Positions 2,059-48,246 of a stretch of DNA of 64,000 nt are shown here, one piece after another. The translations under genes and the position numbers were made by a program. Source of the stretch: Nemertoderma westbladi (lineage: Eukaryota > Animalia > Xenacoelomorpha); NCBI GenBank assembly GCA_032718475.1, contig JAUCBJ010005279.1, positions 20,990-84,989 of the forward strand. The letters run 5' to 3'. Position 1 is the stretch's first letter, and every line of letters begins with the position of its first letter. Under the pieces are notes generated by a model. It was not told the origin of the DNA, did not search any database, and saw only the letters and a program-made list of their open reading frames with translations.

Positions 2059-3947
2059 TATATGGAAGAGACGGTAACAATACCTGCAATATCTTACTGT
2101 AAAGTTTGTGAATCAAATCATAAATCCGACCTTCTCACCAAAACAGTAAACTCTAAGTAAGCGAATATATTGCAGTATCGATCTCTTATAACCGGTGAGG
2201 CAGAAAACAGTCTACGAGCAGACAAACTTCGATAAAACAAAACCCCGCGCAGCGAATCCTAAAATCAGGCTGACTCACTGACGGACTAAGGGGCTCGTAT
2301 ACTTTGCCGCGGTGTGATTTATATGGTTGGGCGAAAGGGACGCTAGCTAGGTACAGAGGCAGAGATTTGGAGATGTCTAACTAGCGGGCAAAGCACAGTA
2401 AGGACAAAAGTTAATTTTATATATATTTTGAGGTGTAAATAATTTCTAACGCGCGCGTGTTAATTCTGAACGGTCAAAAGCAGTTTTGCTCCTTCACATA
2501 TATAATTACTGGGTACGGTGTGCATTTTACGAATATTCTAATTTTGTAACTTGTAGGTCCAATACTCACGAATGATAAGGTTCCTTCCCCTCTTGCGTAT
2601 TTCCAGGACTCAAATTCAGGCATAAAGTTAATACTACGCCCAGAATTCGGCAATTTTAGGTACCAGGTCTCTAATACTGAGAAGAGATGTGTTAGTTTAC
2701 TACAGTAGGCGTACAGTTACTAATAGCTATCCTGGCGTCCTATCTAGAATTTTAGTCACCTAGGTAGGCTGGGTAACTTCCTATTAGGGCGTTGGCGGGG
2801 ACACGGTAGATGTTAGTATATCCCTAATAGCCTCAATTTATTTGCGCCTAGTTGTAAACTGCCCTACCGCCTGAACGGTACAATCCTAATTCAGGTGAAA
2901 ACACAACGACCCTCCTAGCCTACAAGTTCTAATGCAATGGACACCGTTGTACGGTAAATAGTCACAGACGCACCTGTACTTAGCAAGAGTTAAGCGTACA
3001 GTTTGCTGCACCCTAACCATTTGTATGCCTTGTACCGGTGTGCCTACGTCCTATTTGCGTACTAGTATCTCTGCTCTCTCCCTCCCCCGTAGGAATGTGA
3101 AGGTCTACTGTGGTTTTTTTCTGAATCAAGACAGTACAGTCCCTAAGATGTAATTTTAGGCTCACAGCGTGTCACTACTTCTACCTTTTGATCTTTGGTC
3201 TTACGCTTAGGTAGCAAGGCGTCGAACGCTGTCTAACCTTTCAGGCGATGGGCGAATAACTCAAGATGGTATTGCGGGTTGTCTCTTGTCTACATTCCCC
3301 TGATGTTCCCGTTCATTGCTGCGGCCCGATCTCTAGCTGGCCATCCTGTTCCTAAAGGTGTTCACCGTAGTGAATCATGGTGAAAAGAAAGGCAGATAGC
3401 GGTATTTCTGAATTTATTGCAGATAATAGTACAAAATGTAGTCTGAAAACTAATGACAGAATAAACAAGAAATATAGATTGAAATAATCTGTGTACGCTT
3501 GAATGATAACTAATGAACAAATCGCACCTTTATATAGCAAATTTGTGCTGCAATCAATCGAGAAAATTCTCGATTGTTCTATAGGTTCTAACAGGTTTTT
3601 AAAGATAGCTATTGGTCCAGCTAATATATAACTTGCACGACATTGGTTACAATCAAATAACTACAGTCTCATTGGTACAGACAAATGCAATTTAATTTGT
3701 AGCGGTCAATTTAAATGAGTTGAAATTCTGTACAAAAAATAATTCGCACTTACTAGGATTCGAACTCAATACCTACTACACATAAAATTTCCAACGCTCT
3801 ACCGACTGAGCTACTGAACCACTTGACCAATAGGCGTACAATAGATATAACAAATACAAATGAGGACTCAAAGCAATCTTTTACAAAGTTAATTCGAATA
3901 AAATAAAATTTTGAAAATCCACGGCATTTAGGGAATATAATTCTATA
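2059..3947 (-). repeat. 3' LTR of element A (sense ends TATAG...CCATATA)
   Basis: Near-identical to 16703-18591 (at least 7 substitutions seen by eye). Confidence 0.97.
3734..3820 (-). ncRNA. tRNA-derived Pol III cassette (A box, B box, T6) in U3 of LTR A; second copy 18378-18464
   Basis: Sense GGTTCAG-TAGCTCAGTCGG-TAGAGC (intact D arm GCTC/GAGC)...GAGTTCGAATCC...TTTTTT; no acceptor or anticodon stem. Confidence 0.7.
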
Positions 3948-3957
3948 CCGCTCCATG
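3948..3957 (-). promoter_or_regulatory. Short polypurine-tract-like site of A (CATGGAGCGG) abutting the 3' LTR
   Basis: Identical sequence abuts the 3' LTR of B (48667-48676). Confidence 0.6.
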
Positions 3958-4771
3958 AAAACAGGATATTATCGTGCATAAAATATACGGTTTTCACCAA
4001 TAATCAATCAAACTATAGAATACTTAGGGCGTACTTACATATTTACAATTAAATTTCAAATAATACTTCCTTTCTACGTAATGATTCGATACAAAAATAA
4101 TTACAAATTCAAACTTTACGTATTTAAGGCTTTACTAAGTAAGTACAATATAAATCTAAATTAAATTCACCAATATAAATCTATTGCATCTCAATATTGC
4201 ATAAATTCAAACAATTACAAATACAAATAAATGAAAACAATAAGAAAGGCTCGCGAGTCTTCCATCTACTATTGCATCTCAAATATTGCATAAATTCAAA
4301 TAATTACAAATACTTTCGTACCTAAATGTAGATTGCATAGGTTCGGAATAATTACAAATATGAGTCTTTCTAAGCACAAAACTTTCTAACTATAAAACTT
4401 TCTAAATACAAAATATAACACTTTACAAATGAAACTATAAGAAAGGCCCACGAGTCTTCCATCTACTCTTACTTTCTATTTCACTGTAAATACAAATACT
4501 GCTTATAAGATATAAATTGCATAATATTCGGAACAATATAAATTGCATAAGTTCGGAATAATTACAAATATAAAATATAAATTCTTACAAAATATAAATC
4601 TTTACTAAATATAAATCTTACTAAATATGAGTTCTTATTTCTAAATTTCATAAATTCGGAACAATACAAATTGCTTAAGTTCGGAATAAACACAAATATA
4701 AATATAAATTCAAATAAATCACAAAATCATAAGAAAGGCTCACGAGTCTTCCGTCCACCCTTGCCCTCCCT

Positions 4772-6625
4772 TTATCGCTTTGTTGATCGAGCCCTGCCGC
4801 GTCCTCGAAAACTGCGCACAGGTGACTTTGCTCGCGATATGGGACTAATGGGACGAGTCACTGGTTTACTTGGGACGTTGAGAGACGGTGCGACTATTTC
4901 CTCGCAAATTCGTCTATTTGGCATCCCAAAACCTCGACCGATTCCTCGTGACCGATCAGTTGTCACTACAGTTGGTAGAACGTCTGGGAACGCGCGAGAA
5001 GCGGACGACGCAGACCCAAGAGTAGCTTGCGCCCCCTTCTGATCAGCTGGTGTGTGTCCCGATCCTCCTGTTGGTTCTCTAGGAAGCGATACCGTATCCC
5101 GAGTAACTCGAATGGTCGGCTCAGCTCCCTTGCGTTCTTCTATATTAATAATTTTCTTTAATTGTTGGCCCACTTTCTGGACCCGTATGATCCTACCCTG
5201 TCCGTCCTCCCGAGGGTGACGTGCAGACGGCGCAACCGGAGTGGCTGGTATATTTGTCGCCTCTAGGACCTCCTCTTCCTCGAATACGCTCGCTCGTATA
5301 CGTTTGTGGTAAAACGCGGCTCGGTACGCCCATGCGACGGTTAACCAAGCTCCTTTATTCCGCTTTTCAGTTCGGAAACGATCGAATTCACCATACGTAA
5401 TGCGATTAACGACTTTCTGAAAATTCCACGTGTTTTTGTTATCCGGGTGAATCTGTAGTAGATACTCGCGCACTACTCGGAATCCACTGTCGTGGGGCAA
5501 AATATCGACTACCTCGATAAGTTCGTCGTATTGGGGCATAGCGGAGATGTATCCTTCCGACATCATCGTTTGGGGATTTACCGCCCAAAATCCAAGATGC
5601 GCCCTCATCGGAAACCGCCTTCTTTGTGCCGATACATGTTCGTCGGCTAAATCTTCCCACTCATCAAATAATTTCCTCACGAGTTTTACAGATTCGTGTT
5701 CATAAGGTATGTCTCTTAGTTGGCATTCAGATGCTCGATGCCCCTTTATATTGCAATAAGTACATTGAGCCATAAATCTCCAGCAAGTATAAAAGGTATG
5801 AGACCCTTGATCCCCACACCATCCACAGATTAGCTGAGTCGTAGTAATGTGCTTTCCACTGCACTTTGTCATATGATGTCCAGCGACGCCACATTTACCA
5901 CACATCGTATTGGCAGGGTACCACACTCGTTCGTATATAAGATCTCCAATCGGTCGAGCGCTTCCTCCCACACTATAATCGTAATCATCTGAGTCTATGG
6001 GTTGGTAGGTTTCTGAAGGTTGTATACAAACTATAGCATCTGTTGCTTCAAGTTGTCGAATCTCCGTCTGAGATTTCTTCGGGAGGTTCCTTTCTATCTC
6101 AAGAAGTTCCTCTAAAGGATCGTCAGTGATCGTAGTAGTTACTTCGAAATCATCACCAAGGTGACCGATAGGCGCACGCGTCTGCCGTGATTCGTTCGTA
6201 ACCTCCACGATACCGTCGTGTCATATTTAGTCTTTGCGAGTTTCGCTGTACTTTCTGATAATTCCTTTATTCCAAATATAGTGTAATCTTTAGCTCCAAA
6301 TCGTTCGAATGGCGCTGCTGCCTCCTCTTGGATATCATATCCCCATCTCGGCTCTCCTTGTATCCCTTTCTCCATAATTAGGGGTGTAGTTACATAATCA
6401 TTACTACTAGAGGGAATACAACAGAGTTTATTGTTAGTTGTGAGGAGACGTGAGAGTTTTCGTCTGCCCTTTTGGCTCGACAACGCTGTAACCTCCTACC
6501 CATAGCCTAAGATCTAGCGTTTCTTTAATGACACGCTGCTTCTTATCTAAAATTTTTTTGCCGAAATAAAAACGAATTTGGGCTAAACTGGCTGTGAGTC
6601 TAAAATACTCACTTTTTGATCCCAA
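4772..6625 (-). pseudogene. Accessory ORF3 of A: triple CCHC zinc-knuckle protein, disrupted upstream
   Basis: ORF 4772-6208 has CGKCGVAGHHMTKC, CGWCGDQGSHTFYTC, CTYCNIKGHRASEC; upstream pieces 6139-6483 and 6434-6625 are conserved in B; about 33 codons are missing relative to B. Confidence 0.8.
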
Positions 6626-7040
6626 ACTATTATCAGAAAATAAGCAGTCAAGAATTAGTAATAAATATAGGGGAGTCTATTTATTGACGTAACTTATTGA
6701 AACAAGACCGTGTAAAATTTAATTAAAAAATTTTTAAGAAAGGCTCGCAAGTCTTCCTCTCTTGTTTCTCTAATTTTTAAGTTCCACCCGACTGTACCCT
6801 GAAATCTATTCACTGGAGAAAATTTTAAAATTTTTCAAATCCAAATGGATTGTCTAAATTTTCGAAAATGTCTCAATATTGTGAGTTCCAAGTAGAATTC
6901 CATTTCTTATACCTACAAATCCCGCTCCTATGTGACACATAAGGGTACCACCCTCAATGTTCACATATAAAGACAATGGAATTCTACCGCTGTCCTTACT
7001 ACGGTGTACAGGTACGTGGAATCTATTTGTAAACTCCTAA

Positions 7041-10000
7041 TTATTTACTAATATTAGGTGGAGATTTGTAGTCTCCAGACTCGTTACGAGTCTCTTCAAG
7101 AAGTACGAGACGTTGAGTCGGTCTGTCTACTGTACGACCGTCAATTGTCCGTACCGTCACAGTTCTTGTCACTCAATCCATAGATGGATGTGTGGCTAAA
7201 ATTACACCTGTTATCCAGAAGCGTCTTTTTAGATTCACTTCCGCTAACAGCACGTGATCTCCCGGCTTTAATGCGCGGGTGTTATTGTACCAAGTTGTTC
7301 TGGCAGAAATAGAGGGCAAATAATGGTTTTGCCATATTTCCCAGAATTTGTTAGCCAGTAGTTGCGTGATTTTCCACGCTTTTCTACCGTAGCTATCGCC
7401 TTCTATTGGAATAGAAATAGGCATTAATGTAGTCGGTGCCTGCATAAGCAGGTGTGCAGGTGTTAATGCAAACTGGGATTGTTTGTCATCGGGTACTAAT
7501 ACTATTGGTCTAGTATTTAGTATTGCCTCGATTTCAACAAACAGTGTTGTCAGTTGGTCGTCTGTCAATATGTGGTTTACTGGAATGACCTTTGCCATGG
7601 CTGTCTTGATAGATCTAATCAATCTCTCCCAGACTCCGCCTCTCCATGGACTATCTGGAGGATTAAACTTCCAAATAATCTTGTGAGGTTGTAGTTCGTT
7701 CGAGATTTGATCATGATCTAATTTCTTAAAGGCTCTAGCAATCTCATTTCGAGCACCAACAAAGTTTGTCCCTTGGTCTGAGTACAAGCATTTTACTAGT
7801 CCGCGTCTAGCGATAAATCGCCGCAATGCTAGTATAAACGCATTGGTGGAAAGATCCATCACACGTTCAATATGAACTGCCCTACTGGACATACATGTGA
7901 AAATCAGTCCCCAGCGTTTTACTAGTATACGTCCACGTTTCGTATGTATGGGACCAAAGCAATCAATTCCAGTCTCTGTAAAATGTGGTCTGAATGCTTG
8001 AAGTCGTGCTTGTGGTAGTTCACTCATTTCTTGGGTACCTATTCTAGAATGTACCTTTTTACAAATAAATACACGTACGTGTCACTGAACTTAATGCTTT
8101 ACTGGGTCTAATTAATACAAATCTTGTACGTAAGTAGGAAAGACAGTGGTGTCTTCCAGCGTGTTTCAGATGTAAATGTGCGTCCAGTATCATTGCACGT
8201 TGTAGTTCGTGATGTTGCGGTATTATTATTGGGTACCTAAAGTTTGTGTTAAAGTCAATGTTTTGAAGCCGAGATTTATGACAAATTAAGCCATTATAAA
8301 TAATCGGACTCCAACTCAGTATTGGTGACGACTTGATTGGTTGACCTTGATTTATGGATGTGAATTCGCGCGCGAAATATCGCAGTTGGTAATGGCGAAT
8401 TAATTTAATCTCACACATGTCAATCTCAGCCAATGTAAGTCGACGTGTAAAGTCACGTTTGCCTTTAACGTATTGTACAAAACGTACAATCCACGCTAAT
8501 TTTCGGCAAGCGTTTGTCCAAGAGTCTGTTAAGTTTACAATACGGTCGACGTAGGTATTTGTGACGTCATCAGGTAAGTCAATGGAGATTTTGGAAGGTT
8601 TTGATTTACTAGAAGGGCCCACGGGTCCGCCGGTAGGTATTCCCTTGTTGACTGTTGATCCGTCCGGGTCTACAAGTAATTTGTCCTTCTTTGTCTTCTT
8701 ACCTTGATTGTCAGTACTTTGTAAGTCGATCGTTAATGGTGGTTTGAACTCTATGGGGTCACTTGGTTTCGGTAAACTTAATTTTCTGCCGATATTAATC
8801 CCGGGTCTCACCATAGGTTGCAAGTTTGGTATGTCTCTTGAGCGCAGAGTAACACCTGTATTTACATTAGCGTAGGTACTACCCACATCTGTAATACATG
8901 AGGTTTCACCGTGCTTATGGTTGCTCAAGTGTGTCAAAATTGGTAGTTTGTCAATACAAGGCCGCTCCAATAGGGAAACTGCGGCTTTACTATTTGTCAA
9001 TATGTTATTAGTGTCTGGTAGAACATTTTGTGACATGTCTGGTAAAATGTTTCGCGGAACATCCGGCGAAATATCTAGTGACGTGTCTGGCAAAACGTCT
9101 GGTTGACCGTCTAGTAACGTGTCTGGCGATACGTCTGGTAACGTATCTGGTTGTTTGTCAATAGAAGGCCGCTCCAATAGGGAAACTGCGGCTTTACTGT
9201 TTGTCAATATGTCACTAGTGTTTGGTAGAACATTTTGTGATATGTCTGGCAAAATGTCTGGTTGGCTGTCTAGTAACGTGTCTGTTTGACCGTCTGGCGA
9301 TATGTCTGGTGTAGAAAGGCTCGCAAGTCTTCCTCTCTTGACCTTTGAAGTTATATCCTTCCATTTCGCCTTCGGTTTCTTCTTAAGTTTGACCGCCGTC
9401 CTTTTCTTTGCTTTCCCCTTTTTTGGTTTCTTGATTTCGGCGTCCTTAGGGATAGTGTTAGACTTGTTGTCGTATAGTGGCGGCCAATGTAGTGTTGAAT
9501 CTTGTAAGAATTGTGGTCCGTGTTGCCAAAATTCTTTGTTCTCCGGTTTACAGAATTCCTCAGGCATCATTCCTCGCGACGCAATATCAGCTGGGTTTTG
9601 TGGTCCGGGACAATGTCGCCAATCCTATTTTATTGAACGGTCTAGAATTTCTGCGCGACGGTTAGCTACAAATGTCTTGAATTCAAGTGTGTCGTTGTTT
9701 ATGTAAAATAAAACCAACGTCGCGTCAGTCCAATAAAATATCTGTAAACTTGACTGTAGTTCTGTCTGTATGAGGTTCACGATTGTGGTTGACAGGGTTG
9801 CGGCTTGTAGCTCAGCTCGTGGTGTCGTCATATACTTAGTAGGCATTGTTTTTGCCTTAGAAGTAATGAGCGAAACATCGAATTCTTCTGAGTCTACTTG
9901 TCTGCGCAAGTACGCTGCCACACCAAAACCGTTGTCACTGGCGTCGGAAAAACAGTGTAATTCCAAGTTGTCAGGGAATGTTGTTTGTAATGGAAAGTAG

Positions 10001-13000
10001 ACTCTGGGTATGGAATAATCCTCTATCGAAGATAATTCCGCCTCCCAGGTCTTCCATAAGTCCACTTGGTCTGATGAGATTGGCTCGTCCCATGTCAGTC
10101 CATCCTTCCAAATACTGCGCATATAAATGCGGGCTTGCAGTATTACTGGACTGATGAATCCTAACGGATCGAACAATCGGCTCAATTTTGACAAGCATGA
10201 TCTCTTTGTCAGTGTGTTTTCTTGACTGTCCAGTCTCACCTTCACTCGAAAGTTGTCCGTGTTTGGGTCCCAAAAGAGCCCCAACACCTTGGTCGTCGGT
10301 AGTGGTTCGAACTCTAGGTCTATGTCACCACCTCCATGCTCAGTCGTTCCGAATGAGTTTACTAATTCGGCACTGTTTGAGGCGAATTTGGTGAGGTTAA
10401 AACCTCCGCCCGCTAAGCAGTCCCGTAATTGATGTGCTACTGTTGTAGCACGTTCTACTGTGTCGCAACTCTATAAGCCGTCGTCGACGTAAAAGTCACG
10501 CTCCACAATCCTAATTATCTCTGGGTCATACAGGTGTTTCTGATCCCTAGCGGCTTGTTTTAGGGCATACATTGTACAATTTGGGCTGTCCCTGGCACCG
10601 AAAACGCGAACTTGCATTTGGTAAGTCGCCGGTGGTAGACTTAAGTCTCCTTCCGGATACCAGAGGAACCTCAAACTGTCTTTGTCTTGCTCTAACGCTC
10701 TCACTTGGTGAAACATCGCTTCAACGTCGCAAGTAAAAGCTACTTGACGCTGACGGAAGCGCATAATCACCCCCATAAGATAATTATTCATGTTTGGTCC
10801 ATCCATCAACTCGCTATTGAGGGACATTCCCTCAAACAGAGCCGCACAGTCATTGACTACGCGTACTTTATCTGGTTTGTCGGGGTGTCTCACATAGTGA
10901 TGTGGCAAGTAGTACGTCTGGTCAGTCACTCGCTCCGGGTTAGTCATTCGGATAGCGTATCCCTTTGTCAAATACGTCTCCATCTGAGTGTTATACTGCA
11001 GATGGGCTTTCTCGTCCTTTAATAGACGTCGCCGTATTGAGTGTAGACGTCTTAGAGCTAGTGGATAGTTATTTATGAGTTTAGGACTTTGGCTACGCCA
11101 TAACATCCCTACCTCATAATGTCCGTCCTCCGTCTGTCGGATAGTATCTTCCATGATCTTCAGAGATTGTTTCTCCTGTTCCGACATACAAGGTTCGTAG
11201 CTACCAGGTTCAGCTGTATCTTGTTCTAACCACCTGATAGTCTTTTCCGTTAATTCTTTGTCCAGTGCAGCTTGTTCCATTTGATGATTTCTCAACGCGT
11301 CATCATCGATATCGACGGGCATTGTTGAGGTTGTTGGGGTAGGTAGACTCGCAAGCCTTCCGGCGTTATCATCTGTCGTCGATGGAATCTCTAGCTGACT
11401 CGTCTTCTCCCCAAGTTCTAAACTCCGCTGGTGAATTAGCTGCTCCTTGTGACTTATCATACTAGTTACACGTCTGTCATGTTTTGTATGTAAGGTAGTA
11501 TGGTCCACGTCGTGTGAAAAGGAATGAATTGAATTTGTAGTTAATAAACTACATGTACTTTGTACATCTTCCTCGTCACTTATGTCCAGTGTGCGCACAG
11601 GCGCTCGAGTATACCATCCTATCGGCGTTCTACAGGCGTATGCGTTTCCCGCTACGACTGCCGATGGTCTGGTTTCCCACACTTGATGTAGGTTGAATTG
11701 GTCTGTCCCGATCAGCATGGCTACCGATCTATAATTGACAGGACATTCAGGTACACCAAGGTGTCTGAAATACTTAAGGTCCTCCAAGGATTGTTCTGGG
11801 ACAGGACCTAGTAGGTTACTAAAGTCTTTGGTGGCCGCAAAAGTCAAATCCTTGAAGGGTAACAAAGACCTCTCCTTTTCGCTGTGTTGCGATTTCGGAA
11901 GAAGAGAGTCTAAGTTTAACTTAACTCGTGTCACTGGTATTGCACGTTGTCCGTGCATACTACTTACGGTGTAACTAACGCGCTTACCTTGTTTGAGATC
12001 TGTCACTACATCAGCTATCTTTTCATCCACGTAGCTGTGAGATGAGGCTGAATCCAGGATAGCGTAGATTCTCTTGCTCCCCTTTGTGCCAGTAATCTTA
12101 ATCGGAATTACACTGAATCCCTTTAGTTGGTCAGTAGTCAGAAGCGCGATCGATGGCTGTTCATCTCCATCAGAATATACGTCGTCGTCTTCTGACTCTT
12201 CGTCCGACGATCCGGATTGTTCTGAGAAGCAATCCTTTATATGTGTCACAAAGGTTGGAGTCGTTTTCGATTCTCGATTTCTGTAGGCCGCATCACATCT
12301 CGCTGCTGCCTCCGGGTGTTCCCTGGCGAAGCGTTTTGTCGGCGTGTGGCTGTCTGTGTGGAGCAGACCGTCGTGGTTGCGTCCACAGGATGGACAAGTG
12401 TCGGTATTTGGGCAATCCTTGCGAACGTGTCCGTGTCGCGTACACCGCCAACAAGAGTCCAGTGGCCGTATCTGCAGCCGCCGTTCTTCCGAGTTCAACT
12501 CGCGAAACTGTCGACAACCTCGCAACTTGTGACCGATATACCGCTTGCCTAAATGCTCGCAGTATTGGCAGCCGCTGAAGTCGGTACTGAGTTGTTGTCT
12601 CGTCTGTTTTGTCCCAATGGGCGCAGATACCCTACTACCGTCCGAGAATTGTCGTGATTCCGTCGGTGTGGCGTAAGTGGCCGTCTTAGTGGATGTTGTC
12701 TGGGGTTTTTGTCGGTTTGAGGATGGCAAGGTGATTCCTTCTGCCACGATGTGCTGGTCAGTGTAGTTGGATCGAGTTTCTACCACTGCCTCCCTGGATA
12801 TCAAAAGGTACACATCCTCCAGTTTTAAGAATCCACCCCGCTCTTCCCGCTGGTATTCGATCTTCCTCCACTCCTGACGAAGTCGATGGTGGAGTCGTCG
12901 TATGATCCTTAAAAGGACTGTAGGGGTATTCCCGTAGTCAAGTTGTCCAATGGATCTCAAAGTAGTGATAGCGTTCTTTATCTCGTCAGCCAGTTTTAAT

Positions 13001-15891
13001 AAGTCGACGGGTTTAGTGATAGCCCCTCCCTTACAGAGTTCCTCTATTACTGACCTGGCCATACTGACTGTACCTCCGTATATCGAAGTTAAACGATCGT
13101 ACGCTAGTTCAAAGGCGTCCGGTACACCGACGAAAGTCTCCGCCAAATGTTTAGGTTCTCCTGACAACGTTTGAAGCAGGTAATTAAACTTCTCCCGTGA
13201 TGTAAAGGCGCACACGGCGATCTGAGATTCGATATAGTCTACGAAAGTGTGCCAGTGTTTTGAGCTACCGGAAAACTTAGGTGGTTGTTGCACCGGTAGT
13301 CCTTGTCTAGCTGCGAATTTCGCTATCTCCTCGGCAACGTTCAGAGTTTCGCATCCTTGGTTGGTAATCTGGTTGATATCCCTTCTTGGCGCTTTTCCCT
13401 GATACGATGTGTGTTTTGAAGGTACCGGTCTTTGTGGTTCCTTCGGGTGTCTATTGTGTTCGAATTCAGTGTTCCTCGAACTATCGGTTTGAACTTCCTC
13501 CAGACGCTCCTCGATCTGAGCCAACTTGTTAACAACTGGTCGCAGGATGTCGGCGAACTGTTGTGTACTGATTGTGTCCGTTGGTTGTAACGCCTTCTGT
13601 GTTGGTGTATTCTGTGGAGGATTGTCTACAAAGGAGTTGTCTGAACGCTCGCGTTTATATTCATCGGCCGCCCCTGTTCTAAATACCTCGCGTTTCGGGT
13701 AATCCGATTCGCTCGAAGTACTACTATCATCTGGATATGGTGGTCGATGTGCTCGCGTCCGTTGTGCTGTCTGAATCCTAACATTGGTAGGCTCACAAGT
13801 CTTCCTCAAAGTTGTAGATTGCGATGTAAACTGGTTGAACGGTCGCGTATCCACTAGTCTCCGTTGTTCGGTAGGCTCACAAGTCTTCCTCGAAGTCGTA
13901 GATTGCGATGTAAACTGGTTGAACGGTCGCGTATCCACTAGTCTCCGTTGTTCGGTAGGCTCACAAGTCTTCCTCGAAGTCGTAGATTGCGATGTAAACT
14001 GGATCGGTGGTCGGACGACAGCGTTTGAATCAACCGGCCTTGTAGGTCGAAACGTCATTGGGTAAGCGTAGTGTGTAACGCGTTTAGGTGTCGACGGTGG
14101 ACTCACCTGTTTAGTCGTCAGTAGTGCAGGTCCGACTAATAAACTACTACGATCTGTAATCGGCTGGTTACTTACCTTGACTTTCGGAATAGGCGATGAC
14201 GTTGCTCTTGGCGGTGTAAACTTGTCCGGAATAACAAACCTGTGTTCCGTCGCACCATGGATAGGAGAAATATCACTACTACCCGCAATCGAAACAGGTT
14301 TCTTAGTTGTAACTGGTGCGAACATAGGGGTTACTTGAGGGAATCTTTGACATAAGTCTTTTACTAATTGTCGTTCCCGTCCGGGTGCTCCTACGCTTCC
14401 TTCCTTCTTCCGTTCCTGAATTTGGCAATGTCTTACCTCTAACTGGTCCAAATCATGTCCGTCACGAGATCTCATCGATCTATCGCGGGCTAGAAGATCC
14501 AGATTTTCCTTGGCTTCGGCTAATTCTCTCGCCTTCTTCTCGAGTTCGAAATGAAGTTTCACTGTCTTCTCTCTTTGTTCCGTTTGTTGTCGTTGCGCCT
14601 CAAACTCCGCTTGTCGTATAGTGGATTGAGCTTTTATTTGCCGTGTTTTCATTTCGGCCCGCGCTTCCGAAACTAACCGTTCTCGTTCTAATTCCGCCGC
14701 TGCCGTTTGTCGCTCTAGTTCGGCAGTTTGTCGCTCTAGTTCGGCCGCTGCCGTTTGTCGCTCTAATTCCGCCGCTGCCGTTTGTCGCTTTAATTCTGCC
14801 GTTTGTCGCTCTAATTCCGCCGCTGCCGTTTGTCGCTCTAGTTCGGCCGCTGCGTTTCGTTGCGCTAAATCAGCCGCTGCTGTTCGTTGAGCAATGTCTA
14901 CCTCTAACCTTTCTACTTCAGCTGCTTCTAATTCAGCTTGTTCCTGTAGATGAGAGATTCTCGCTACATTCGCAACGCGTAGCTTCTCTTCTTCTACTGC
15001 TGCCTGCATCACTAGAAGTTGAGCTTGTTCCTCCATTTCTCGTCGTTGTCGGTAGAATTCTTGCTGTTTTTGAGCAACTTCTGACGTAACCATACTTCCC
15101 TCGCCAATTTCGCTACGAATACTTACCAACGATTGATCCAATATTCCCGTTGCCGATTCGATTCGTACGGGTGAAGTTTCCCTCGTATACTCCGGCACGG
15201 TTTCCAAATCGCCGACGTCTTCGCCGCACATACGTAAGTGATCCGTCAGATGTTTCAATTGTCCATCCAGTCGGTACAGTTCCTGTTCTTCCTCGGGTTG
15301 TAATAATTCGTCCGACACTGACTCACCTAACAACTGGTCCGCTTGTTCCTGTTGTATCTGCCTAATCGTCGACTTAAACTGAATCAGTTTCTCTCTAGCG
15401 ATCATTACTTTCTCGAGGATTCTAAGTTGAGTATCCATGTCCTGTCTCTGTCTAGCTAGATCTTGTAGACCAATTAGGTTATCTACGGACTTGTGTACTC
15501 TACTTTGTACTCTAACCTGGAGGGTGTAGAACTCGAATCGAGACATCGGAGCGGTCAACTCGTTTAATATGCGTTGGCCTTCTCCAATACTCCTGGTTAT
15601 ATGCGCCATGTAACCTCCGACGCTTCTAACCACACTTTCTGTGCTTCCTGCTGAACTTACCAGGTCCGTTTCCCTGTATCTAGGTTGCGGAACAGTTAGA
15701 AAGTCCTCGGTCCTGCCGTCGCCTCGTACTACGGCATCCGGTACTCCCGTTGGATGTACTGGTGACGCACACGGTGTAGGTTCGGTAGGCTCGCGAGTCT
15801 TCCCCTGTTGTTCTTCCGCTGCTGACTTATCTCCGTCACATGAGTCATAGTCGGTTTGTGTATTCTTCGTATAGTCTTGTTTGTCACTCAT
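7041..15891 (-). pseudogene. gag-pol: gag-pol polyprotein of A (Gag, aspartic protease, RT, RNase H, integrase); 3 nonsense codons and 1 frameshift
   Basis: PR ILDSAS; RT FTCDVEAMFHQV and YVDD; RNase H FSDAS/PRAEL/WTDA/NPAD; IN HLHLKH..C, GIDCFGP, SDQGTNF, WERLI. Stops at 10471, 9625 and 7173; +1 frameshift near 8065 relative to B. Confidence 0.95.
13786..14000 (-). repeat. 84-bp in-frame tandem repeat (about 2.5 copies) in gag of A
   Basis: QFTSQSTTSRKTCEPTEQRRLVDTRPFN repeated; units start 84 bp apart (13786, 13870, 13954). Confidence 0.9.
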
Positions 15892-16691
15892 TTCGGTAGT
15901 TGTAAGTCAAGTAAAGTGAGTGTCAAAGTATCGAGTTTACCGTATTTATATCTAAACGGTACTAATTACAGTCATATAAAATTAGCCTACCGACCGATTT
16001 TATAGCAGATGGATAAAATTAGCCTAGACGGCCAATTTTACAGCAAATAAATGTCACGGAATAAGTATATAATAAAATTAGCCTAAACGGCCAATTTTAT
16101 AACAAATAAATCGGATAACGATATGCGTTATCAAAAGGTAAATTAAATACAATAATACGGACTAATTCAGCAATGAACAAAGAAATCATACGGAATGCAT
16201 AAATACTTGAGACAGTGGAACCCACAATAATTTTAACTAATACGGTAATGCCTAACTTATTTATGCAACTTTTCGAACTCACCCACTCCAATAATTCTCC
16301 AGAAAAACAGATTCCCAGATACAAACCGGACGTGAACCTTTCCGTTTTTAACGTTGCGGACGAAGCGCGATTTTCCCAACCAAAGTTGTTGAGTTATCTA
16401 TCTCCCAAACTTGCTAAACACGGTCTTGCTCCCGTTACAGTCTAGAAATGAGTTCTGAATCCTGAAAAACAAAAGAGTTAGGTTTTACTTTTACGAAAAA
16501 TTTTGTACCGGTACAATATGGTATTTAAACCCTTTTAAACACCGGTATTCAATTCCAAAAATATATTTACACGCGGTTCAAATCAAATTTTATTTCAAAA
16601 ATTAGCACTTAGCTAATCAAATACAAATTTTTACCTCAAAATACAAAATTTTCAAATAACTTTAGTCCTACCGAACCGTAGTTCAGTAAAA

Positions 16692-16702
16692 CACATTCCT
16701 AC
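16692..16702 (-). promoter_or_regulatory. Non-tRNA primer-binding site of A (GTAGGAATGTG)
   Basis: Abuts the 5' LTR; lacks TGG; perfect 11-nt complement at 17733-17743 within the LTR. Confidence 0.75.
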
Positions 16703-18591
16703 TATATGGAAGAGACGGTAACAATACCTGCAATATCTTACTGTAAAGTTTGTGAATCAAATCATAAATCCGACCTTCTCACCAAAACAGTAAACTCTAA
16801 GTAAGCGAATATATTGCAGTATCGATCTCTTATAACCGGTGAGGCAGAAAACAGTCTACGAGCAGACAAACTTCGATAAAACAAAACCCCGCGCAGCGAA
16901 TCCTAAAATCAGGCTGACTCACTCACGGACTAAGGGGCTCGTATACTTTGCCGCGGTGTGATTTATATGGTTGGGCGAAAGGGACGCTAGCTAGGTACAG
17001 AGGCAGAGATTTGGAGATGTCTAACTAGCGGGCAAAGCACAGTAAGGACAAAAGTTAATTTTATATATATTTTGAGGTGTAAATAATTTCTAACGCGCGC
17101 GTGTTAATTCTGAACGGTCAAAAGCAGTTTTGCTCCTTCACATATATAATTACTGGGTACGGTGTGCATTTTACGAATATTCTAATTTTGTAACTTGTAG
17201 GTCCAATACTCACGAATGATAAGGTTCCTTCCCCTCTTGCGTATTTCCAGGACTCAAATTCAGGCATAAAGTTAATACTACGCCCAGAATTCGGCAATTT
17301 TAGGTACCAGGTCCCTAATACTGAGAAGAGATGTGTTAGTTTACTACAGTAGGCGTACAGTTACTAATAGCTATCCTGGCGTCCTATCTAGAATTTTAGT
17401 CACCTAGGTAGGCTGGGTAACTTCCTATTAGGGCGTTGGCGGGGACACGGTAGATGTTAGTATATCCCTAATAGCCTCAATTTATTTGCGCCTAGTTGTA
17501 AACTGCCCTACCGCCTGAACGGTACAATCCTAATTCAGGTGAAAACACAATGACCCTCCTAGCCTACAAGTTCTAATGCAATGGACACCGTTGTACGGTA
17601 AATAGTCACAGACGCACCTGTACTTAGCAAGAGTTAAGCGTACAGTTTGCTGCACCCTAACCATTTGTATGCCTTGTACCGGTGTGCCTACGTCCTATTT
17701 GCGTACTAGTATCTCTGCTCTCTCCCTCCCCCGTAGGAATGTGAAGGTCTACTGTGGTTTTTTTCTGAATCAAGACAGTACAGTCCCTAAGATGTAATTT
17801 TAGGCTCACAGCATGTCACTACTTCTACCTTTTGATCTTTGGTCTTACGCTTAGGTAGCAAGGCGTCGAACGCTGTCTAACCTTTCAGGCGATGGGCGAA
17901 TAACTCAAGATGGTATTGCGGGTTGTCTCTTGTCTACATTCCCCTGATGTTCCCGTTCATTGCTGCGGCCCGATCTCTAGCTGGCCATCCTGTTCCTAAA
18001 GGTGTTCACCGTAGTGAATCATGGTGAAAAGAAAGGCAGATAGCGGTATTTCTGAATTTATTGCAGATAATAGTACAAAATGTAGTCTGAAAACTAATGA
18101 CAGAATAAACAAGAAATATAGATTGAAATAATCTGTGTACGCTTGAATGATAACTAATGAACAAATCGCACCTTTATATAGCAAATTTGTGCTGCAATCA
18201 ATCGAGAAAATTCTCGATTGTTCTATAGGTTCTAACAGGTTTTTAAAGATAGCTATTGGTCCAGCTAATATATAACTTGCACGACATTGGTTACAATCAA
18301 ATAACTACAGTCTCATTGGTGCAGACAAATGCAATTTAATTTGTAGCGGTCAATTTAAATGAGTTGAAATTCTGTACAAAAAATAATTCGCACTTACCAG
18401 GATTCGAACTCAATACCTACTACACATATAATTTCCAACGCTCTACCGACTGAGCTACTGAACCACTTGACCAATAGGCGTACAATAGATATAACAAATA
18501 CAAATGAGGACTCAAAGCAATCTTTTACAAAGTTAATTCGAATAAAATAAAATTTTGAAAATCCACGGCATTTAGGGAATATAATTCTATA
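16703..18591 (-). repeat. 5' LTR of element A
   Basis: Direct repeat of 2059-3947; TATATAAAGG near 18171-18180 (sense) with upstream CCAAT motifs. Confidence 0.97.
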
Positions 18592-18596
18592 ACAGC

Positions 18597-34393: not shown

Positions 34394-34522
34394 TATAGAA
34401 TTATATCCTCATAAAAGCCGTGGATTTTCAAAATTTATTTTTGTTGGAATAAACTTGTTATAAAGATTACGTTAAGTTCTCATTTGTATTTACCATTGCT
34501 ATTTGTACAAGGTTACTCAAGT

Positions 34523-34606
34523 GGTTCAGTAGCTCAGTCGGTTATGTGTTGGAAATTTGTCCAGAAGGTATCGTGTTCAAATCCTAGAAGGTGCGAATTG
34601 TTTTTT
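34523..34606 (+). ncRNA. tRNA-derived A box / B box / T6 cassette in U3 of LTR B; second copy 48806-48889
   Basis: TAGCTCAGTCGG (34530-34541), GTGTTCAAATCC (34573-34584), TTTTTT (34601-34606). Confidence 0.65.
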
Positions 34607-34739
34607 GTGCTGAATTTTCAATTAATTCAAATTAACCTCTACGATTTAAATTGATAGTAACAATGTATGATTTGACTGAATCATTGTACGAATACATTAT
34701 ACAATGTACGATTTAAATTGCATTTACCCGAGTGATTAA

Positions 34740-34905
34740 CCAATATAATTGCAGTTATATGATAGTAACCAATGTCGTGCAAGTTGTGAGTTGTTGGACC
34801 AATGGTTATCTTTAAAAACCCAATATAATTATAGAATGTTCTCGATTGTTTGCAGCACAAATTTGCTATAAAAGGTGCAGTTTCGTTCATTAGTTATTCA
34901 ATCTC
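34740..34905 (+). promoter_or_regulatory. Probable Pol II promoter of LTR B (several CCAAT motifs + TATAAAAGG at 34867)
   Basis: Motifs are positionally conserved in A; transcription start inferred near 34890-34900. Confidence 0.55.
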
Positions 34906-36376
34906 AATCACACAAAAACACAATTATTCTGAGTTATCTGATATTTGTTTATTCTGTCATTAGTTATTTCAGATTACATTTTGTATTAGTATTAATCTGC
35001 AATAAAATTCAGAAATACCGCTATCAGCCTTTCTTTTCACTATGATTCACTACGGTGAACACCCTTAGGAACAGGATGGTCGGCTAAAGATCGGGCCGCA
35101 GCAGTGAACGAGAACATCGGGGGAATGTGACCAGGAGACCACCCACAACATCTATTAGAGTTATTCGCCCATCGCCTGAAGGTTAGACAGTGTTCGATGC
35201 TTTGCTACCTAAGTGTAAGACCTAAGATCGACGGTAGGAGCAGCGACACACTGTACGCCAAAAGTTAAATTAAGATCTGTATTATCCTGATTCTCGGAAA
35301 ACCAGCAGAACCCCTTCATATTCCTACGGGGGGAGAGGAGGACAGAGGAAAGTTAGAGATACCTGTACGCAGATAAGACATAGGCACACCAGTACATGGC
35401 ATGTAAATTGATAGGGTGCAGCAAAACTGTACGCCTAGCTCATTGTCAGGTATAGGTGCGCTGTGTGTCTTGTCAGCAGTACACGGTATTTGTTGCTTGC
35501 GTTGGAACTTGTAGGCTAGGAGAGGGTTGTTGTGTTTTCCCTGAATTGTGATTATACCATTCAGGCGGTAGGGCAGTTTACATGCTAGGCGAAAATAAAT
35601 TGAGGCTATTAGGGATACTAACATCTACCGTGTCCCCGCCAACGTCCTGATAGGAAGTTACCCGGACTACCTAGGTGACTAAAATTCCAGATAAGAGCCA
35701 GGATAGCTATTCGTAACTGTACGCCTACAGTAGTAAACTAACACATTTCTTCTTAGTATTAGGGACCTGGTACCTAAAATTGCCGAATTCTGGGCGTAGC
35801 ATTAACCCTGGAAATACACAAAAGGGGAAGGAGCCTTATCATTTGTAAGTATTGGACCTACAAGTTACCAAAATATTAGAATATTTGTAAAATAAACGCC
35901 GGACCCAGTAAATGAGATTATATGAAGGATTAAAACCAATTTTGATCCAAGAATTAACAAATTCGCGTGTTTAGGAATTATTTACACCTCAAAAAAATAT
36001 AAAATAATTTGTTCACTCTGCTGCTTTGCCTGCTAGTTATATTTGTAGCTAGCGTCTCTCTCACCCACCATATAAATCACACCGCGGCAAAGTATACGAG
36101 CGCCCTTAGTCCGTCAGTGAGTCAGCCCGATTTTAGGATTCGCTGCGCGGGATTTTTGTATTACCGAAGTTTGTCCGTTCGTAGACTGTTTTCTGCCTCA
36201 CCGGTTAAAAGAGACCAATACTGCGATAGTTTTGCTTACTTAGAGTTTACTGTTTTGGTGAGAAGGTCGGATTTATGCTTTGATTCACAGACTCTATAGT
36301 ATGATATTGCAGGATACGTATTTGGGTTTCTCACATCAATAGGAATGTGTACCTTTGTTCGTGTCTCTTCCATTTA

Positions 36377-36389
36377 GTAGGAATATGAA
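36377..36389 (+). promoter_or_regulatory. Non-tRNA primer-binding site of B (GTAGGAATATGAA)
   Basis: Abuts the 5' LTR; perfect 13-nt complement TTCATATTCCTAC at 35315-35327. Confidence 0.75.
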
Positions 36390-37180
36390 TTACTGAACTA
36401 CGGTTCAGTAGAACAAAATTATTTGAAAATTTTGTATTTTGAGGTAAAAATTTGTATTTGATTAGCTAAGTGCTAATTTTTTGAAATAAAATTTTGATTT
36501 GAAACGCGTAAAACATTTGGAATTAAATACCAGTGTTTAAAAGGGTTTAAATACCATATTGTACCGGTACAAAAAATTTTCGTAAAAGTAAAACCAAACT
36601 CTTTTGTTTTTCAGGATTCAGAGCTCATTTCTAGACTGTAACGAGAGCAAGACCGTGTTTCACGAGTTTGGGAGATAGATAACTCAACAATTTTGGTTGG
36701 GAAAATCGCACTTCGTCCGCAGCGTTGGAAACGGAAAGGTTCACGTTCGGTTTGTATGTGGGAATCTGTTTTTCTGGAGAATTATTGGAGTGGGTAAGTT
36801 CGAAAAGTTGCATTAATCAGTTAGGCATTACCGTATTAGTTAAAATTATTGTGGGTTCCACTGTCTCAAGTATTTATGCATTCCGTACGATTTCTTTGTT
36901 TATTGCTGAATTAGTCCGTAATTATTTGTGTTAATTTACATTTTGATAACGTATATCGTTATCCGATTTATTGTTATAAAATTGGCCGTTAGGCTAATTT
37001 TATTATATACTTATACCGTGACATTATTTGCTGTAAAATTGGCCGCTAGGCTAATTTTATCCATTTGCTATAAAATCGGCCGGTAGGCTAATTTTATATG
37101 ACTGTAATTAGTACCGTTAGATATAAATACGGTAAACTCGATACTTTAACACTCACTTTACTTGACTTACAACTACTGAA

Positions 37181-40100
37181 ATGAGTGACAAACAAGACTA
37201 TACGAAGAATACACCTACCGACTATGACTCATGTGACGCGAAGTCAGCAGCGGAAGAACAACAGGGGAAGACACGTGAGCCTACCGAACCTACACCGTGT
37301 GCGTCACCAGTACATCCAACGGGAGTACCGGATGCCGTAGTACGAGGTGACGGCAGGACCGAGGACTTTCTAACTGTTCCGCAACCTAGATATAGGGAAA
37401 CGGACATGGTAAGTTCAGCAGGAAGCCAGGACAGCGTAGTTAGAAGCGTCGGAGGATACATGGCGCATATTACCAAGAGTATTGGAGAAGGACAACGCAT
37501 ATTAGGCGAGTTGACCGCTCCGATGTCCCGATTCGAGTTCTACACTCTACAGGTAAGAGTACAAAGTAGAGTACATAAGTCCGTAGATAACTTAGTCAGC
37601 CTACAAGATCTAGCTAGACAAAGACAGGATGCGGACACGCAGTATCGAATCCTCGAGAAACTAATGATCGCTAGGGAGAAACTGATTCAGTTTAAGACGA
37701 CCGTTAGGCAGATACAACAAGAGCAAGCGGATCAGTTATTAGGTGAGTCGGTTTCCGACGAGTTGTTACAGCCCGAAGAGGAACAAGAACTGTATCGGCT
37801 GGATGGACAACTGAAACGCCTGACGGATCACTTACGTATGTGCGGCGAGGACGTTGGAGATTGGGAAACCGTACCGGAAGCTACGAAGGAAACTTCACTC
37901 GCACCAATCGAGCTGGCACCAGGAATACTGGATCAATCGCTGGTGAGTATTCGTAGCGAAATCGGCGAGGGAAGTATGGTCACGTCAGAAGTTGCTCGAC
38001 AACAGCAACAGTTCTACAGACAACGACGACAAATGGAGGAACAAGCTCAACTTCTAGTGATGCAGGCAGCAGTAGAGGAAGAGAAGCTACGCATTGCGAA
38101 TTTAGCGAGAATCTCTCATCTACAGGAACAAGCTGAATTAGAAGCAGCTGAAGTAGAACGGTTAGAGTTAGACATTGCCCAACAAGCGGCGGCAGCCGAG
38201 TTAGTGCAACGAACTGCAGCAGCCGAGTTAGAGCGACAAGCGGCAGCGGCAGCGTCAGAGTTAGAGCGACAAACGGCAGCGGCGGAGTTAGAAAGGAAAA
38301 GGTTAGTTTCAGAAGCACGAGCCGAAATGAAAACATGGCAAATAAAAGCCCAATCAGCTATACGACAAGCGGAGTTTGAGGCGCAACGACAACAAACGGA
38401 ACAACGAGAGAAGGGAGTTAAACTTCGTTTCGAACTCGAGAAGAAGGTGAGAGAATTAGCGAACGCCGAGGAAGATCTGGATCAAAAGGCCCGCGATCGA
38501 TCGATGAGATCTCGAGACGGACATGATTTGGACCAGATAGAGGTAAGACATCGCCAAATTCAGGAACGGAAGAAGGAAGGAAGCGTAGGAGCACCCGGAC
38601 GGGAACGACAATTAGTAAAAGACTTGTGTCAACGATTTCCACAAGTAACTCCTATGTTTGCACCGATTATGACTAAGGAACCTGTTTCGATTGCCGGTAG
38701 TAGTAATATTTCTCCTATCCATGGTGCGACGGAACACAGGTTGGTAATTCCGGACAAATTCATACCGCCAAGAGCAACGTCGTTGCCTATTTTAAAAGTC
38801 AAGGTAAGTAACCCACCGAATACCGATCGTAGTAGTTTATTGACCAGACCTGCGCTACTGACAACTAAACAGGTGAGTCCACCTTCGACACCGAAACCCG
38901 TTACGCACTACACTTACCCAATGACGTTTCGGCCTACAAGGCCAGTCGATTCAAACGCTACCACACGACCACCGTTTAAAAAGCGTACATCGCAATCTAC
39001 GACTTCGAGGAAGACTTGTGAGCCTACCGAACAACGGAGACCAGTGGATACGCGACCGTTTAACCAGATTACATCGCAATCTACGACTTCGAGGAAGACT
39101 TGTGAGCCTACCGAACGACGGAGACCAATAGACGATGTTCCGAAGCGGAACGTTAGAATTCGAACGACGCAATGGACGCGAGCACGTCGACCACCGTATC
39201 CAGGTGACAGTAGTACTTCGAGTGAATCGGATTACCCGAAACGCGAGGTATTTAGAACAGGGGCGGCCGATGAATACAAACGCGAGCGTTCAGACAACTC
39301 CTTTGTAGACAATCCTCCACGAAATACACCAACACAGAACGCGTTACAACCAACAGACGCAATTAGTACACAACAGTTCGCCAACATTCTGCGACCAGTT
39401 GTTAACAAGTTGGCTCAGATTGAGGAACGTCTGGAGGAAGTTCAAACGGATAGTTCAAGGAACACCGAATTCGAACACAATAGACACCCGAAGGATCAGC
39501 AAAGACCAATACCTTCGAGAAACACACCGTATCAGGGAAAAGCGCCAAGAAGGGACATCAACCAGATTACCAACCAAGGACGCGAAACTCTGAACGTTGC
39601 CGAGGAAATAGCGAAATTCGCAGCTAGACAAGGACTACCGGTGCAACAACCACCTAAGTTTTCCAGTAGCTCAAAACACTGGCACACTTACGTAGACTAT
39701 ATCGAATCTCAGATCGCTGTGTGCGCCTTTACATCACGGGAGAAGTTTAATTACCTGCTTCAAACGTTGTCGGGAGAACCCAAACGTTTGGCGGAGACCT
39801 TCGTTGGTGTACCGGACGCCTTCGAACTAGCGTACGATCGCTTAACTTCGATCTACGGAGGTACAGTCAGCATGGCCAGGTCAGTGATAGAGGAACTCTG
39901 TAAGGGAGGGGCTATTACTAAACCCGTCGACTTATTGAAACTAGCTGACGAAATAAAGAACGCTATCACTACATTAAGATCTATTGGACAGCTTGACTAC
40001 GGAAATACCCCTACAGTCCTATTAAAGATCATAGGACGACTCCACCATCGACTTCGTCGGGAGTGGAGGAAGATCGAATACCAGCGGGAAGAGCGAGGTG

Positions 40101-45883: not shown

Positions 45884-46294
45884 TTAGGAGTTTACAAATA
45901 GATTTCCACGTACCTGTACGCTGTAGTAAAGACAGCGGTAGAATTCCATTGTCTTTATATGTGAACATTGAGGGTAGTACCCTTATGTATCACATAGGAG
46001 CGGGATTTTGTAGGTATAAGAAATGGAATTCTACTTGGAACTCACAATATTGAGACATTTTCGAAATTTTAGACAATCCATTTGGATTTGAAAAATTTTT
46101 AAAATTTTCTCCAGTGAATAGATTTCAGGGTACAGTCGGGTGGAACTTAAAATTAGAGAAACAAGAAGGGAAGACTTGCGAGCCTTTCTTAAATTTTATT
46201 AAATTTTACACGGTCTTGTTTCAATAAGTTGCGTCAATAAATAGACTTCCCTATATTTATTACTAATTATTGACTGCTTATTTTCTGATAATAG

Positions 46295-48246
46295 TTTGGG
46301 ATCAAAAAGTGAGTATTTTAGACTCACAGCCAGTTTAGCCCAAAATCGTTTTTATTTTTGGCAAAAAATTTAAATAAGAAACAGTGTGTCGCTAAAGAAA
46401 CCTTAGATCTTAGGCTATGGGTAGGAGGTTAGAGCGCTGTCGAGCCCAAAGGGCAGACGAAACTCTCACGTCTCCTCACAACTAACCACAAACTCTGTTG
46501 TATTCCCTCTAGTAGCAATGATTATGTAACCATTACACCTCTAATTATGGAGAAGGAGATACATGGAGAGCCGAGATGGGGATATGATATCCAAGAGGAA
46601 GCGGCAGCGCCATTCGAACGATTTGGAGCTAAAGACTACACTATATTTGGTATAAAGGAATTATCAGAAAGTACAGCGAAGCTAGCAAAGATAGCAATGC
46701 CTTTACTCGAGCAGGATTTAGCATATTTCGAGACGTGTATCTTCGCTGTGCGGGATCTCTTATCGAAAGACCATCTATGTTTACATTGTTACCCTATGAA
46801 GGAGAACGTATCGTGGAGATTACTGAAGAATCACGGCAGACGCGCGCGCCTATCGGTCACCTTAGTGACGATTTCGAAGTAACGACGATCATTGGTGATC
46901 CTCTAGAGGAACTTCTTGAGATCGAAAGGAACCTCCCGAAGAAATCTCAGACGGAGATTTGACAACTTGAAGCAACAGATGCTGTAGTTTGCATACAACC
47001 TTCAGAAACCTATCAACCCATAGATCCAGATGATTATGACTATAGTGTGGGAGGAAGCGCTCGACCTATTGGAGATCTTATATATGAGCGAGTGTGGTAC
47101 CCTGCCAACACTATGTGTGGTAAATGTGGCGTCGCTGGACATCATTCGACGAAGTGCAGTGGAAAGCACATCACTACGACTCAACTAATCTGTGGATGGT
47201 GTGGAGATCAAGGGTCACATACATTTTATACTTGCTGGAGATTTATGGCTCAATGTACGTATTGCAATATCAAGGGACATCGAGCATCTGAATGCCAACT
47301 ACGAGACATACCTTATGAACACGAATCTGTAAAACTCGTAAGAAAGCTATTCGACGATTGGGAAGATTTGGCTGACGAACACGTATCGGCACAAAGGAGA
47401 AGATTCCCGATGAGAGCGCATCTTGGATTTTGGGCGGTAAATCCACAAACTATGATGTCTGAAGGATATATCTCAGCTATGCCTCAATATGACGAACTTA
47501 TAGAGGTAGTTGATATTTTGCCTCATGACAGCGGATTCCGAGTGGTGCGCGAGTATCTGTTACAGATTCACCCAGACAATAAGAACACATGGAATTTTCA
47601 GAAAGTCGTAAATCGTATCACGTATGGTGAGTTCGATCGTTTCCGAACGGAGAAGCGGAACAAGGGAGCTTGGTTAACCGTCGCATGGGCGTACCGAGCC
47701 GCGTTCTATCACAAACGTATACGAGCGAGCGTATTCGAGGAAGAGGAGATCCTAGAGGCGACAAATATACCAGCCACTCCGGTTGCGCCGTCTGCACGTC
47801 ACCCTCGGGAGGACGGACAGGGTAGGATCATAAAGGTTCAGAAAGTGAGCCAACAATTGAAGAAGTCTATTAATATAGAAGAACGCAAGGGAGTCAAGCC
47901 GACTATTCGAATTACTAGGGATACGGTATCGCTTCCTAGAGAACCAACAGGAGGATCGGGACATACACCAGCTGATCAAAAGGGGGCAAAAGTTTCTCTT
48001 GGGTCTGCGTCGTCCGCTTCTCGTGCATTCCCAGACGTTCTACCAACCGTAGTGACAACTGATCGGTCACGAGGAATTGGTCGAGGATTTGGGACGCCTA
48101 ATAGGCAAATTTGTGAGGAAACGGTAGTACCTCCTCTCAACGTCCCAAGTAAACCAGTGACTCGCCCCATTAGTCCCATATCGCGAGCAAAGTCACCTGT
48201 GCGCAGTTTTTGAGGACGCGGCAGGGCTCGATCTACAAAGCGGTAA
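46295..48246 (+). pseudogene. Accessory ORF3 of B: triple CCHC knuckle protein, disrupted
   Basis: ORFs 46547-46882, 46735-46962 and 47047-48213 are orthologous to ORF3 of A; TGA in place of Arg codons at 46960 and 48211. Confidence 0.8.

Follow-up and report, generated by a model that had tools for sequence, protein, structure and literature searches.

Dispersed packaging signals occur in RNA viruses (MS2, the hepatitis B virus pregenome, picornaviruses), in which many related stem-loops along the genomic RNA are proposed to present one recognition motif to the capsid protein (PMC6281560). In human immunodeficiency virus (HIV), the zinc knuckles of nucleocapsid (NC) bind the G's at tetraloop positions 2 and 4 in stem-loops SL3 and SL2, and the dimerization initiation site of HIV-1 is a pseudopalindrome convertible to an extended duplex (PMC7599994). 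The self-complementary PAL1 and PAL2 of the long terminal repeat (LTR) element Ty1 fold as hairpins in monomeric RNA and pair as a duplex upon dimerization, which Gag chaperones; they are 6-7 nucleotides (nt) long and lie at the 5' end, PAL3 in gag being dispensable (PMC6844567, PMC4974528). Beyond Ty1 and Ty3, RNA selection and pairing are poorly resolved in LTR retrotransposons; in these two, the known signals are few and near the 5' end. Here, we have analyzed a 64,000-nt stretch of Nemertoderma westbladi DNA (the window; assembly GCA_032718475.1, contig JAUCBJ010005279.1, positions 20,990 to 84,989), in which a 20-nt word, hereafter the 20-mer, recurs along two related BEL/Pao LTR retrotransposons, elements A and B.

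As in the single-stranded RNA viruses, stem-loops sharing a motif were found along the RNA that would be packaged. Here, however, the carrier is an LTR retrotransposon, the units are about 12, sharply bounded, nearly identical and 20 nt long, they keep a constant wobble, and the candidate signal is known from sequence. Like HIV-1 SL2 and SL3, the 20-mer has G at loop positions 2 and 4, and it is a self-complementary hairpin capable of forming a duplex. Whereas the retroviral signals described in the part of that literature cited here are single copies clustered in the 5' leader, the 20-mer is repeated over coding and non-coding parts and the leader is without it. On our reading, it would work like the known dispersed or dimer signals, differing from them in place, number and uniformity; no report of a repeated hairpin of this kind in an LTR retrotransposon was found in the open-access literature, a scope that leaves out Repbase and subscription journals. 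The 20-mer is real, structured and probably functional. We tentatively propose, at somewhat less than an even chance, that it is a cis signal on the sense genomic RNA, bound by the element's own zinc-knuckle protein for loading, compaction and packaging selection. As a discrete unit, present a dozen times and in naturally occurring compensatory variants, the 20-mer offers a small testable substrate, in an element that appears to shape its own protein linkers to carry an RNA signal.

A 20-nt word repeated along elements A and B

All 17 copies listed by the first-pass annotation were exact matches (10 on the minus strand in A and 7 on the plus strand in B, all in element-sense orientation). Its two reading phases (KT[C/R]EP and GRLASL), the non-coding sites and the two local duplications that carry the motif in A, an 84-nt gag triplication and a duplication in the 3' untranslated region (UTR), were recovered as well. 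The copies are not independent, though, as those of B are orthologous to those of A and the ten of A fall at six positions: the Gag N-terminus, the 84-nt gag repeat, the linker between protease and reverse transcriptase (RT), the RNase H-integrase linker, the spacer between pol and the third open reading frame (ORF3), and the 3' UTR. No exact match was present outside A and B across the 64 kb. The motif edges were sharp at 20 nt, and the sites scored 30-35 bits against their profile, against an average of 0.005 matches above 20 bits per shuffle in 200 dinucleotide shuffles of A, both strands included. A chance origin of the motif is excluded.

A profile built from sequence alone, with no pairing rule, was used to scan A. 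The next-ranked places were at 6186 (19.1 bits), 8631 (11.2 bits) and 8157 (9.2 bits), the following one reaching 5.0 bits. Such scores were reached in 0.2%, 7% and 15% of 3000 shuffles, respectively, so that only 6186 was significant by score. The places at 8631 and 6186 (sites 5 and 7, Table 1) keep the YGYG loop and an A·C at positions 6/15 and have B orthologues, and were therefore counted as real. The first-pass list, correct in all that it contained, had missed both of them (A 8612-8631 and A 6167-6186) and the doubtful place at 8157, together with their B orthologues. The G, R, L and S residues encoded at the doubtful site are common in 120 homologues, and this site may be a coding by-product; it was kept in the alignment A1 and left out of the site counts and of the A-B test below.

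In total, A carries 12 sites and B nine, at eight independent positions, six of which lie in reading frames. The sites are placed in protein linkers and spacers; the first lies within gag, and none in the LTRs or the leader. The largest gap between sites is ~2.5 kb, and they are spaced a little more evenly than expected by chance (p = 0.037, post hoc). A covariance model gave no further match below E = 1 in the LTRs, element C (a third BEL/Pao element), host DNA or a metagenomic relative described below, except on the opposite strand of sites already counted. A comparison of positions 2000-18700 with Rfam returned a single match at E = 0.72, far under the gathering score.

Table 1. Window coordinates of elements A and B, their frames, 20-mer sites and primer-binding positions
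Feature	Position	Strand	Description	Counterpart in B
Element A	2059..18591	-	BEL/Pao LTR retrotransposon, 16.5 kb	
Element A LTRs	2059-3947, 16703-18591		99.6% identical over 1890 nt	
Element B	34394..50678	+	A's family, nested within element C	
Gag-protease-RT frame	10471..15906	-	NC knuckles at residues 1113-1165	
ORF3 frame	4772..6220	-	three CCHC knuckles, helical middle of unknown fold, Arg/Ser-rich tail	
Site 1	15784..15803	-	Gag N-terminus, KTREP	37266-37285
Sites 2a-c	13786..13973	-	84-nt gag tandem repeat, KTCEP	two: 39009, 39093
Site 3	11342..11361	-	protease-RT linker, GRLASL	41591
Site 4	9314..9333	-	enlarged RNase H-integrase linker, GRLASL	43616
Site 5	8612..8631	-	GGPVGPS; scan rank 12; six of six pairs kept	44294-44313, identical
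Site 6	6738..6757	-	non-coding pol/ORF3 spacer	46169
Site 7	6167..6186	-	near ORF3 frame start, RQTRAP; double change 8/13	46835-46854
Sites 8a-c	4244..4752 (at 4733, 4441, 4244)	-	AT-rich 3' UTR	one: 48266
Doubtful site	8138..8157	-	integrase HHCC finger; full 8-bp stem, loop CCAC	44768-44787
Primer-binding position, A	16692..16702	-	11 nt complementary to LTR 17733-17743	
Primer-binding position, B	36377-36389		complementary to LTR 35315-35327	

The window contains three BEL/Pao LTR retrotransposons. The assignment of the A/B family was based on the Pfam domains DUF1759, Peptidase_A17 and DUF5641, the Gag-protease-RT-RNase H-integrase order, direct LTRs and a 5-bp target site duplication. 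The pol of A contains stops and a frame break in the ORF listing; in B, with an LTR pair 98.7% identical, both pol and ORF3 are interrupted. A and B diverge by 7.6% across 12,116 aligned bases. When B was divided into 30 bins, contigs of four public runs covered 28-30 of them, and variants were numerous. Element C belongs to a distant family (integrase 33% identical) and contains a tandem array only, with neither the motif nor a similar dispersed word.

A/B is a new, atypical BEL/Pao family. Among the best 120 of 255 integrase matches, no relative was more than 40% identical, and the motif peptides were present in 0 of these 120 homologues. The viral collection contained neither a relative nor an exact motif match, and the metagenome scan yielded a single locus, L001, which is 37% identical and has neither the motif nor a comparable dispersed word. 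In a tree of 39 rows picked from 122, B stood on a long branch of unsure placement. The RNase H-integrase linker (8059-9624, minus strand), which holds two sites, spans 473 residues in A, against a median of 205 and a maximum of 245 in the 46 of 120 homologues in which it was measurable.

Pairing pattern and sequence constraint

The scan places ranked 11-13 all keep six of six pairs despite a changed position 8. The U-A at 8/13 is replaced across them by G-C, C-G or A-U, and the A-U at 4/17 by G-C at 8631, so that site 5 carries double changes at both pairs. Among shuffled sequences, 32 of 842 matches above 8 bits kept six pairs and, where position 8 was changed, 8/13 was Watson-Crick in 22 of 361. 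The covariation score was 0.228, a value reached by none of 500 column shuffles, although related rows inflate this comparison. With G·U counted, the ten mirror positions paired in 86 of 100 cells on the sense strand and in 78 of 100 on the antisense strand, and the sense failures were confined to 3/18 and 6/15. Such double complementary changes indicate pairing within a single strand or between like strands.

Seven bases are invariant (G1, G2, G5, C7, G14, C16 and C20). Position 19 is C or U, facing G2, and position 13 is A or G, facing U8; in the loop, positions 9 and 11 are C or U alongside the fixed G10 and G12 (loop G2 and G4). The pair 3/18 is free to vary, while 6/15 is always A·C or, at site 3 alone, G·U; A·C and G·U pairs have the same geometry. 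Fixed stem bases together with a kept wobble suggest a protein that senses both shape and sequence. A shifted alternative stem, seen at sites 4 and 6, did not fit the remaining sites, and Smaug-type CNGG and Roquin-type triloop hairpins fit neither this loop nor the 8/13 register.

Differences between A and B numbered 5 in 180 positions within sites and 908 in 11,936 outside (p = 0.005). Four of the five in-site differences are wobble-neutral; the fifth (B 37273) is private to B, with T in all four runs. In the public contigs, the sole in-motif variant of at least 1% at the site at 46169 was a T to C change at position 9. The pairing and variation data thus support the constraint at nucleotide level that the first-pass annotation had suggested.

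The loop changes are CpG-like and one-stranded, with TG forms and no CA form among the 21 sites or in mismatch-tolerant scans, while the A-B background contained 96 CA and 81 TG. At a symmetric DNA site, CpG decay would produce CA and TG in equal measure; as CA forms were absent, neutral decay of this kind was rejected.

This strand asymmetry bears on the idea, rather improbable in our judgment, that the 20-mer is an inverted repeat at which a dimeric protein of the element, bound to double-stranded DNA, would protect the family against silencing. The first-pass annotation had considered such a role by analogy with VANC proteins of Arabidopsis VANDAL elements. Like the 20-mer, itself a near-palindrome, VANC targets are family-specific, one-way and tandem-amplified, and their element likewise has an additional orphan ORF (PMC5735166). 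Same-orientation arrays built in tandem were found here too, and neither A nor B shows CpG depletion (observed/expected 1.16 and 1.13, respectively). However, VANC binds double-stranded words of 8-9 nt, mainly non-coding, in a DNA transposon, and pairing covariation is not described in the part of that source cited here (PMC5735166); the 20-mer is not located mainly in non-coding sequence. If half-site positions were free, each would be expected to vary on its own, but those of 8/13 and 4/17 change jointly. No site lies in any LTR, and CCHC knuckles bind single strands. Complementary changes and wobble-tolerated variants favor single-stranded pairing over a double-stranded DNA site and leave the analogy weak. 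The anti-silencing proposal is disfavored by the complementary mirror changes, the one-strand TG loop changes, the coding placement and the lack of LTR sites.

A candidate signal on sense RNA and its possible readers

In the proposed packaging signal, which agrees with the element-encoded binding protein (for packaging or export) put forward in the first-pass annotation, a weak hairpin would be stabilized by protein. Tandem CCHC knuckles, those of Gag NC first and those of ORF3 second, would read the two loop G's in the manner of HIV NC; knuckle reading is proposed because the fixed loop positions match the G2 and G4 bound by that protein. Gag would load cooperatively over many sites, which a distance of at most ~2.5 kb between them would suit. 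The copies would likely have spread by tandem duplication and RT template switching. As to the working strand, we favor sense RNA with a confidence of roughly two thirds.

Several results weigh against this proposal. With standard folding in a 160-nt context, pair 7/14 reached a probability of at least 0.5 on the sense strand at one of 12 A and one of nine B sites, and on the antisense strand at five of 12 and six of nine, respectively. Among nine sense and nine antisense 40-mers, the best z score against shuffles was -1.73, and mean self-duplex energies were alike on the two strands (-16.8 sense, -16.4 antisense). The A-B conservation test is partly circular, the pattern having been drawn from both copies, and the 131-nt stretch around 46169, with six substitution places only, is conserved throughout, so that the motif is not singled out there. 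No relative at an intermediate distance was found. A subgenomic RNA would also include ORF3 and the 3' UTR, in which four of the 12 A sites are found, and the leader, the place of the Ty1 and retroviral signals, contains none. Finally, copying by template switching would by itself be enough to produce a one-way orientation.

A hairpin stable by energy was rejected, since no 40-mer significantly beat its shuffles. The 8-position stem with a YGYG loop described in the first-pass annotation is therefore supported by covariation and not by folding energy. The energy model treats A·C as a plain mismatch, which penalizes the sense strand; the result still stands.

The folding data lend themselves to a different view, in our opinion quite unlikely, in which the antisense strand does the work, as a CRCR-loop hairpin in antisense RNA or minus-strand cDNA (for example, a mark by which antisense transcripts would be destroyed, or a reverse-transcription signal). 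Antisense hairpins folded better alone (mean -4.4 vs. -2.3 kcal/mol), in context and with DNA parameters, and 6/15 is G·U on that strand at nine of 10 distinct A sites. On the other hand, 2/19 pairs there at only three of 10 sites, the variants at 11361 and 4460 lose the fold, and four variable positions are wobble-neutral on the sense strand alone.

With G·U allowed, the 20-mer is palindromic even across its centre, so that two copies can form a duplex far stabler than the hairpin (-0.4 to -4.9 kcal/mol for the A hairpins, the doubtful site excluded, and -8 to -25 kcal/mol for the self-duplexes). YGYG pairs with any YGYG through C-G or U·G, and an intermolecular duplex could link two packaged genomes. 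The duplex energy being no better on sense than on antisense, we treat dimer linkage as a possibility. A bolder version of the packaging reading, which we regard as doubtful, would combine a self-priming, tRNA-free BEL/Pao lineage with a wobble-coded palindrome about every 2 kb on a ~15-kb RNA, whose hairpins a knuckle protein would read while zipping two genomes together lengthwise. If true, such a packaging and dimer code spanning the genome would have no LTR-retroelement precedent that we found in the open-access literature.

The third reading frame, present in both A and B, encodes three CCHC knuckles and is so far confined to this family. ORF3 had no Pfam match and no true homologue, only two knuckle-only matches, and no match in the PDB below E = 0.2. 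Its single-sequence fold was uninformative (predicted local distance difference test, pLDDT, 34.6), and its best Atlas score (0.87) provides a lead only. Upstream of ORF3, in both copies (~46550-46880 in B, ~6400-6140 in A), an ATG-started segment and the knuckle-coding segment lie in different frames; this offset may reflect a shared break, splicing or recoding. We consider ORF3 a possible reader of the 20-mer and Gag NC at least as likely a one. Were ORF3 the reader, a BEL/Pao element would possess an accessory system for RNA binding.

The same sense hairpin could instead be read by a Rev-like ORF3 or by a host RNA-binding protein and serve to export or localize the RNA or to shield it from decay or small-RNA silencing. 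We judge this unlikely. Sites also occur within ORF3 and the 3' UTR, the invariant stem bases suggest sequence-specific reading, and the three knuckles and Arg/Ser-rich tail of the so far family-only ORF3 would suit the role. The second Gag knuckle has a Trp right after its first Cys, and the ORF3 knuckles, unlike it, have no such aromatic, which counts against ORF3 as reader; no Rfam family reached threshold in A, which speaks against this role as well.

Sites 4 and 6 share 28 nt. Immediately 5' of each of these two sites, which are separated by 2.6 kb, B differs from A by the same GA-to-AG swap (43614-43615 and 46167-46168); such swaps number four in the 12.1-kb A-B alignment, two of them at motif sites, and B's swap form at 46167 made up ~1% of depth in two runs. 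The twin swap suggests exchange between sites 4 and 6. Together with the tandem amplification in gag and the 3' UTR, and with five coding positions within low-complexity or enlarged linkers, this would be compatible with a functionless by-product, a recombination-prone quasi-palindrome spread by template switching whose seemingly compensatory changes arose from palindrome-templated mutation. Yet templated correction should erase the mismatches at 2/19, 3/18 and 6/15, and these persist; the sharp 20-nt boundaries, the lower divergence inside sites and the somewhat even spacing also argue against it, and of the readings given here we find this one the least probable.

Priming, LTR ends and other features of the window

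No tRNA-type primer start was present at the primer-binding position of A or B. The 11-13 nt complementarity between primer position and LTR includes a compensatory change between A and B, and element C has a 9-nt match of like kind. By analogy with Tf1-type self-priming (PMC7175516), the A/B family looks self-priming. Priming of this type would place the RNA start near LTR position 850-920, for a transcript of ~15 kb. In the open-access literature, we found no paper plainly reporting self-priming in BEL/Pao elements.

The LTRs of A and B are 1.9-2.0 kb long. Their ends are TA..TA instead of TG..CA (2059, 18591, 34394 and 50678), and the target duplications are clean and 5 bp long. TG..CA termini and a tRNA-complementary primer-binding site are typical of BEL/Pao elements; A/B has neither and is an atypical member. 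Near the LTR start, tRNA-like A-box and B-box words were observed (18457 and 18409 in A, minus strand; 34530 in B), possibly a short interspersed element (SINE) head, an RNA polymerase III promoter or an insulator. A tRNA gene at the LTR start was rejected, ARAGORN finding none.

Element C carries an extra ORF (27451-29400, minus strand) that ends in a knuckle, has no Pfam match and resembles 3'-5' exonuclease-domain proteins (Atlas 0.91; PF01612 on 50% of the cluster). Between this ORF and the pol of C lies a tandem array (29891-30618) of 19 short perfect 5-bp hairpins with loops of 3-4 nt. Thus, an extra ORF again stands beside repeated hairpins, as in A/B, but here these are clustered.

Elsewhere in the window, we observed a 142/77-nt tandem array (59111-60274), an intronless ORF with a fibrinogen domain (22167-22889), 41-44% identical to proteins of several animal phyla, and RT-bearing fragments of long interspersed elements (LINEs) at 60608-62330.

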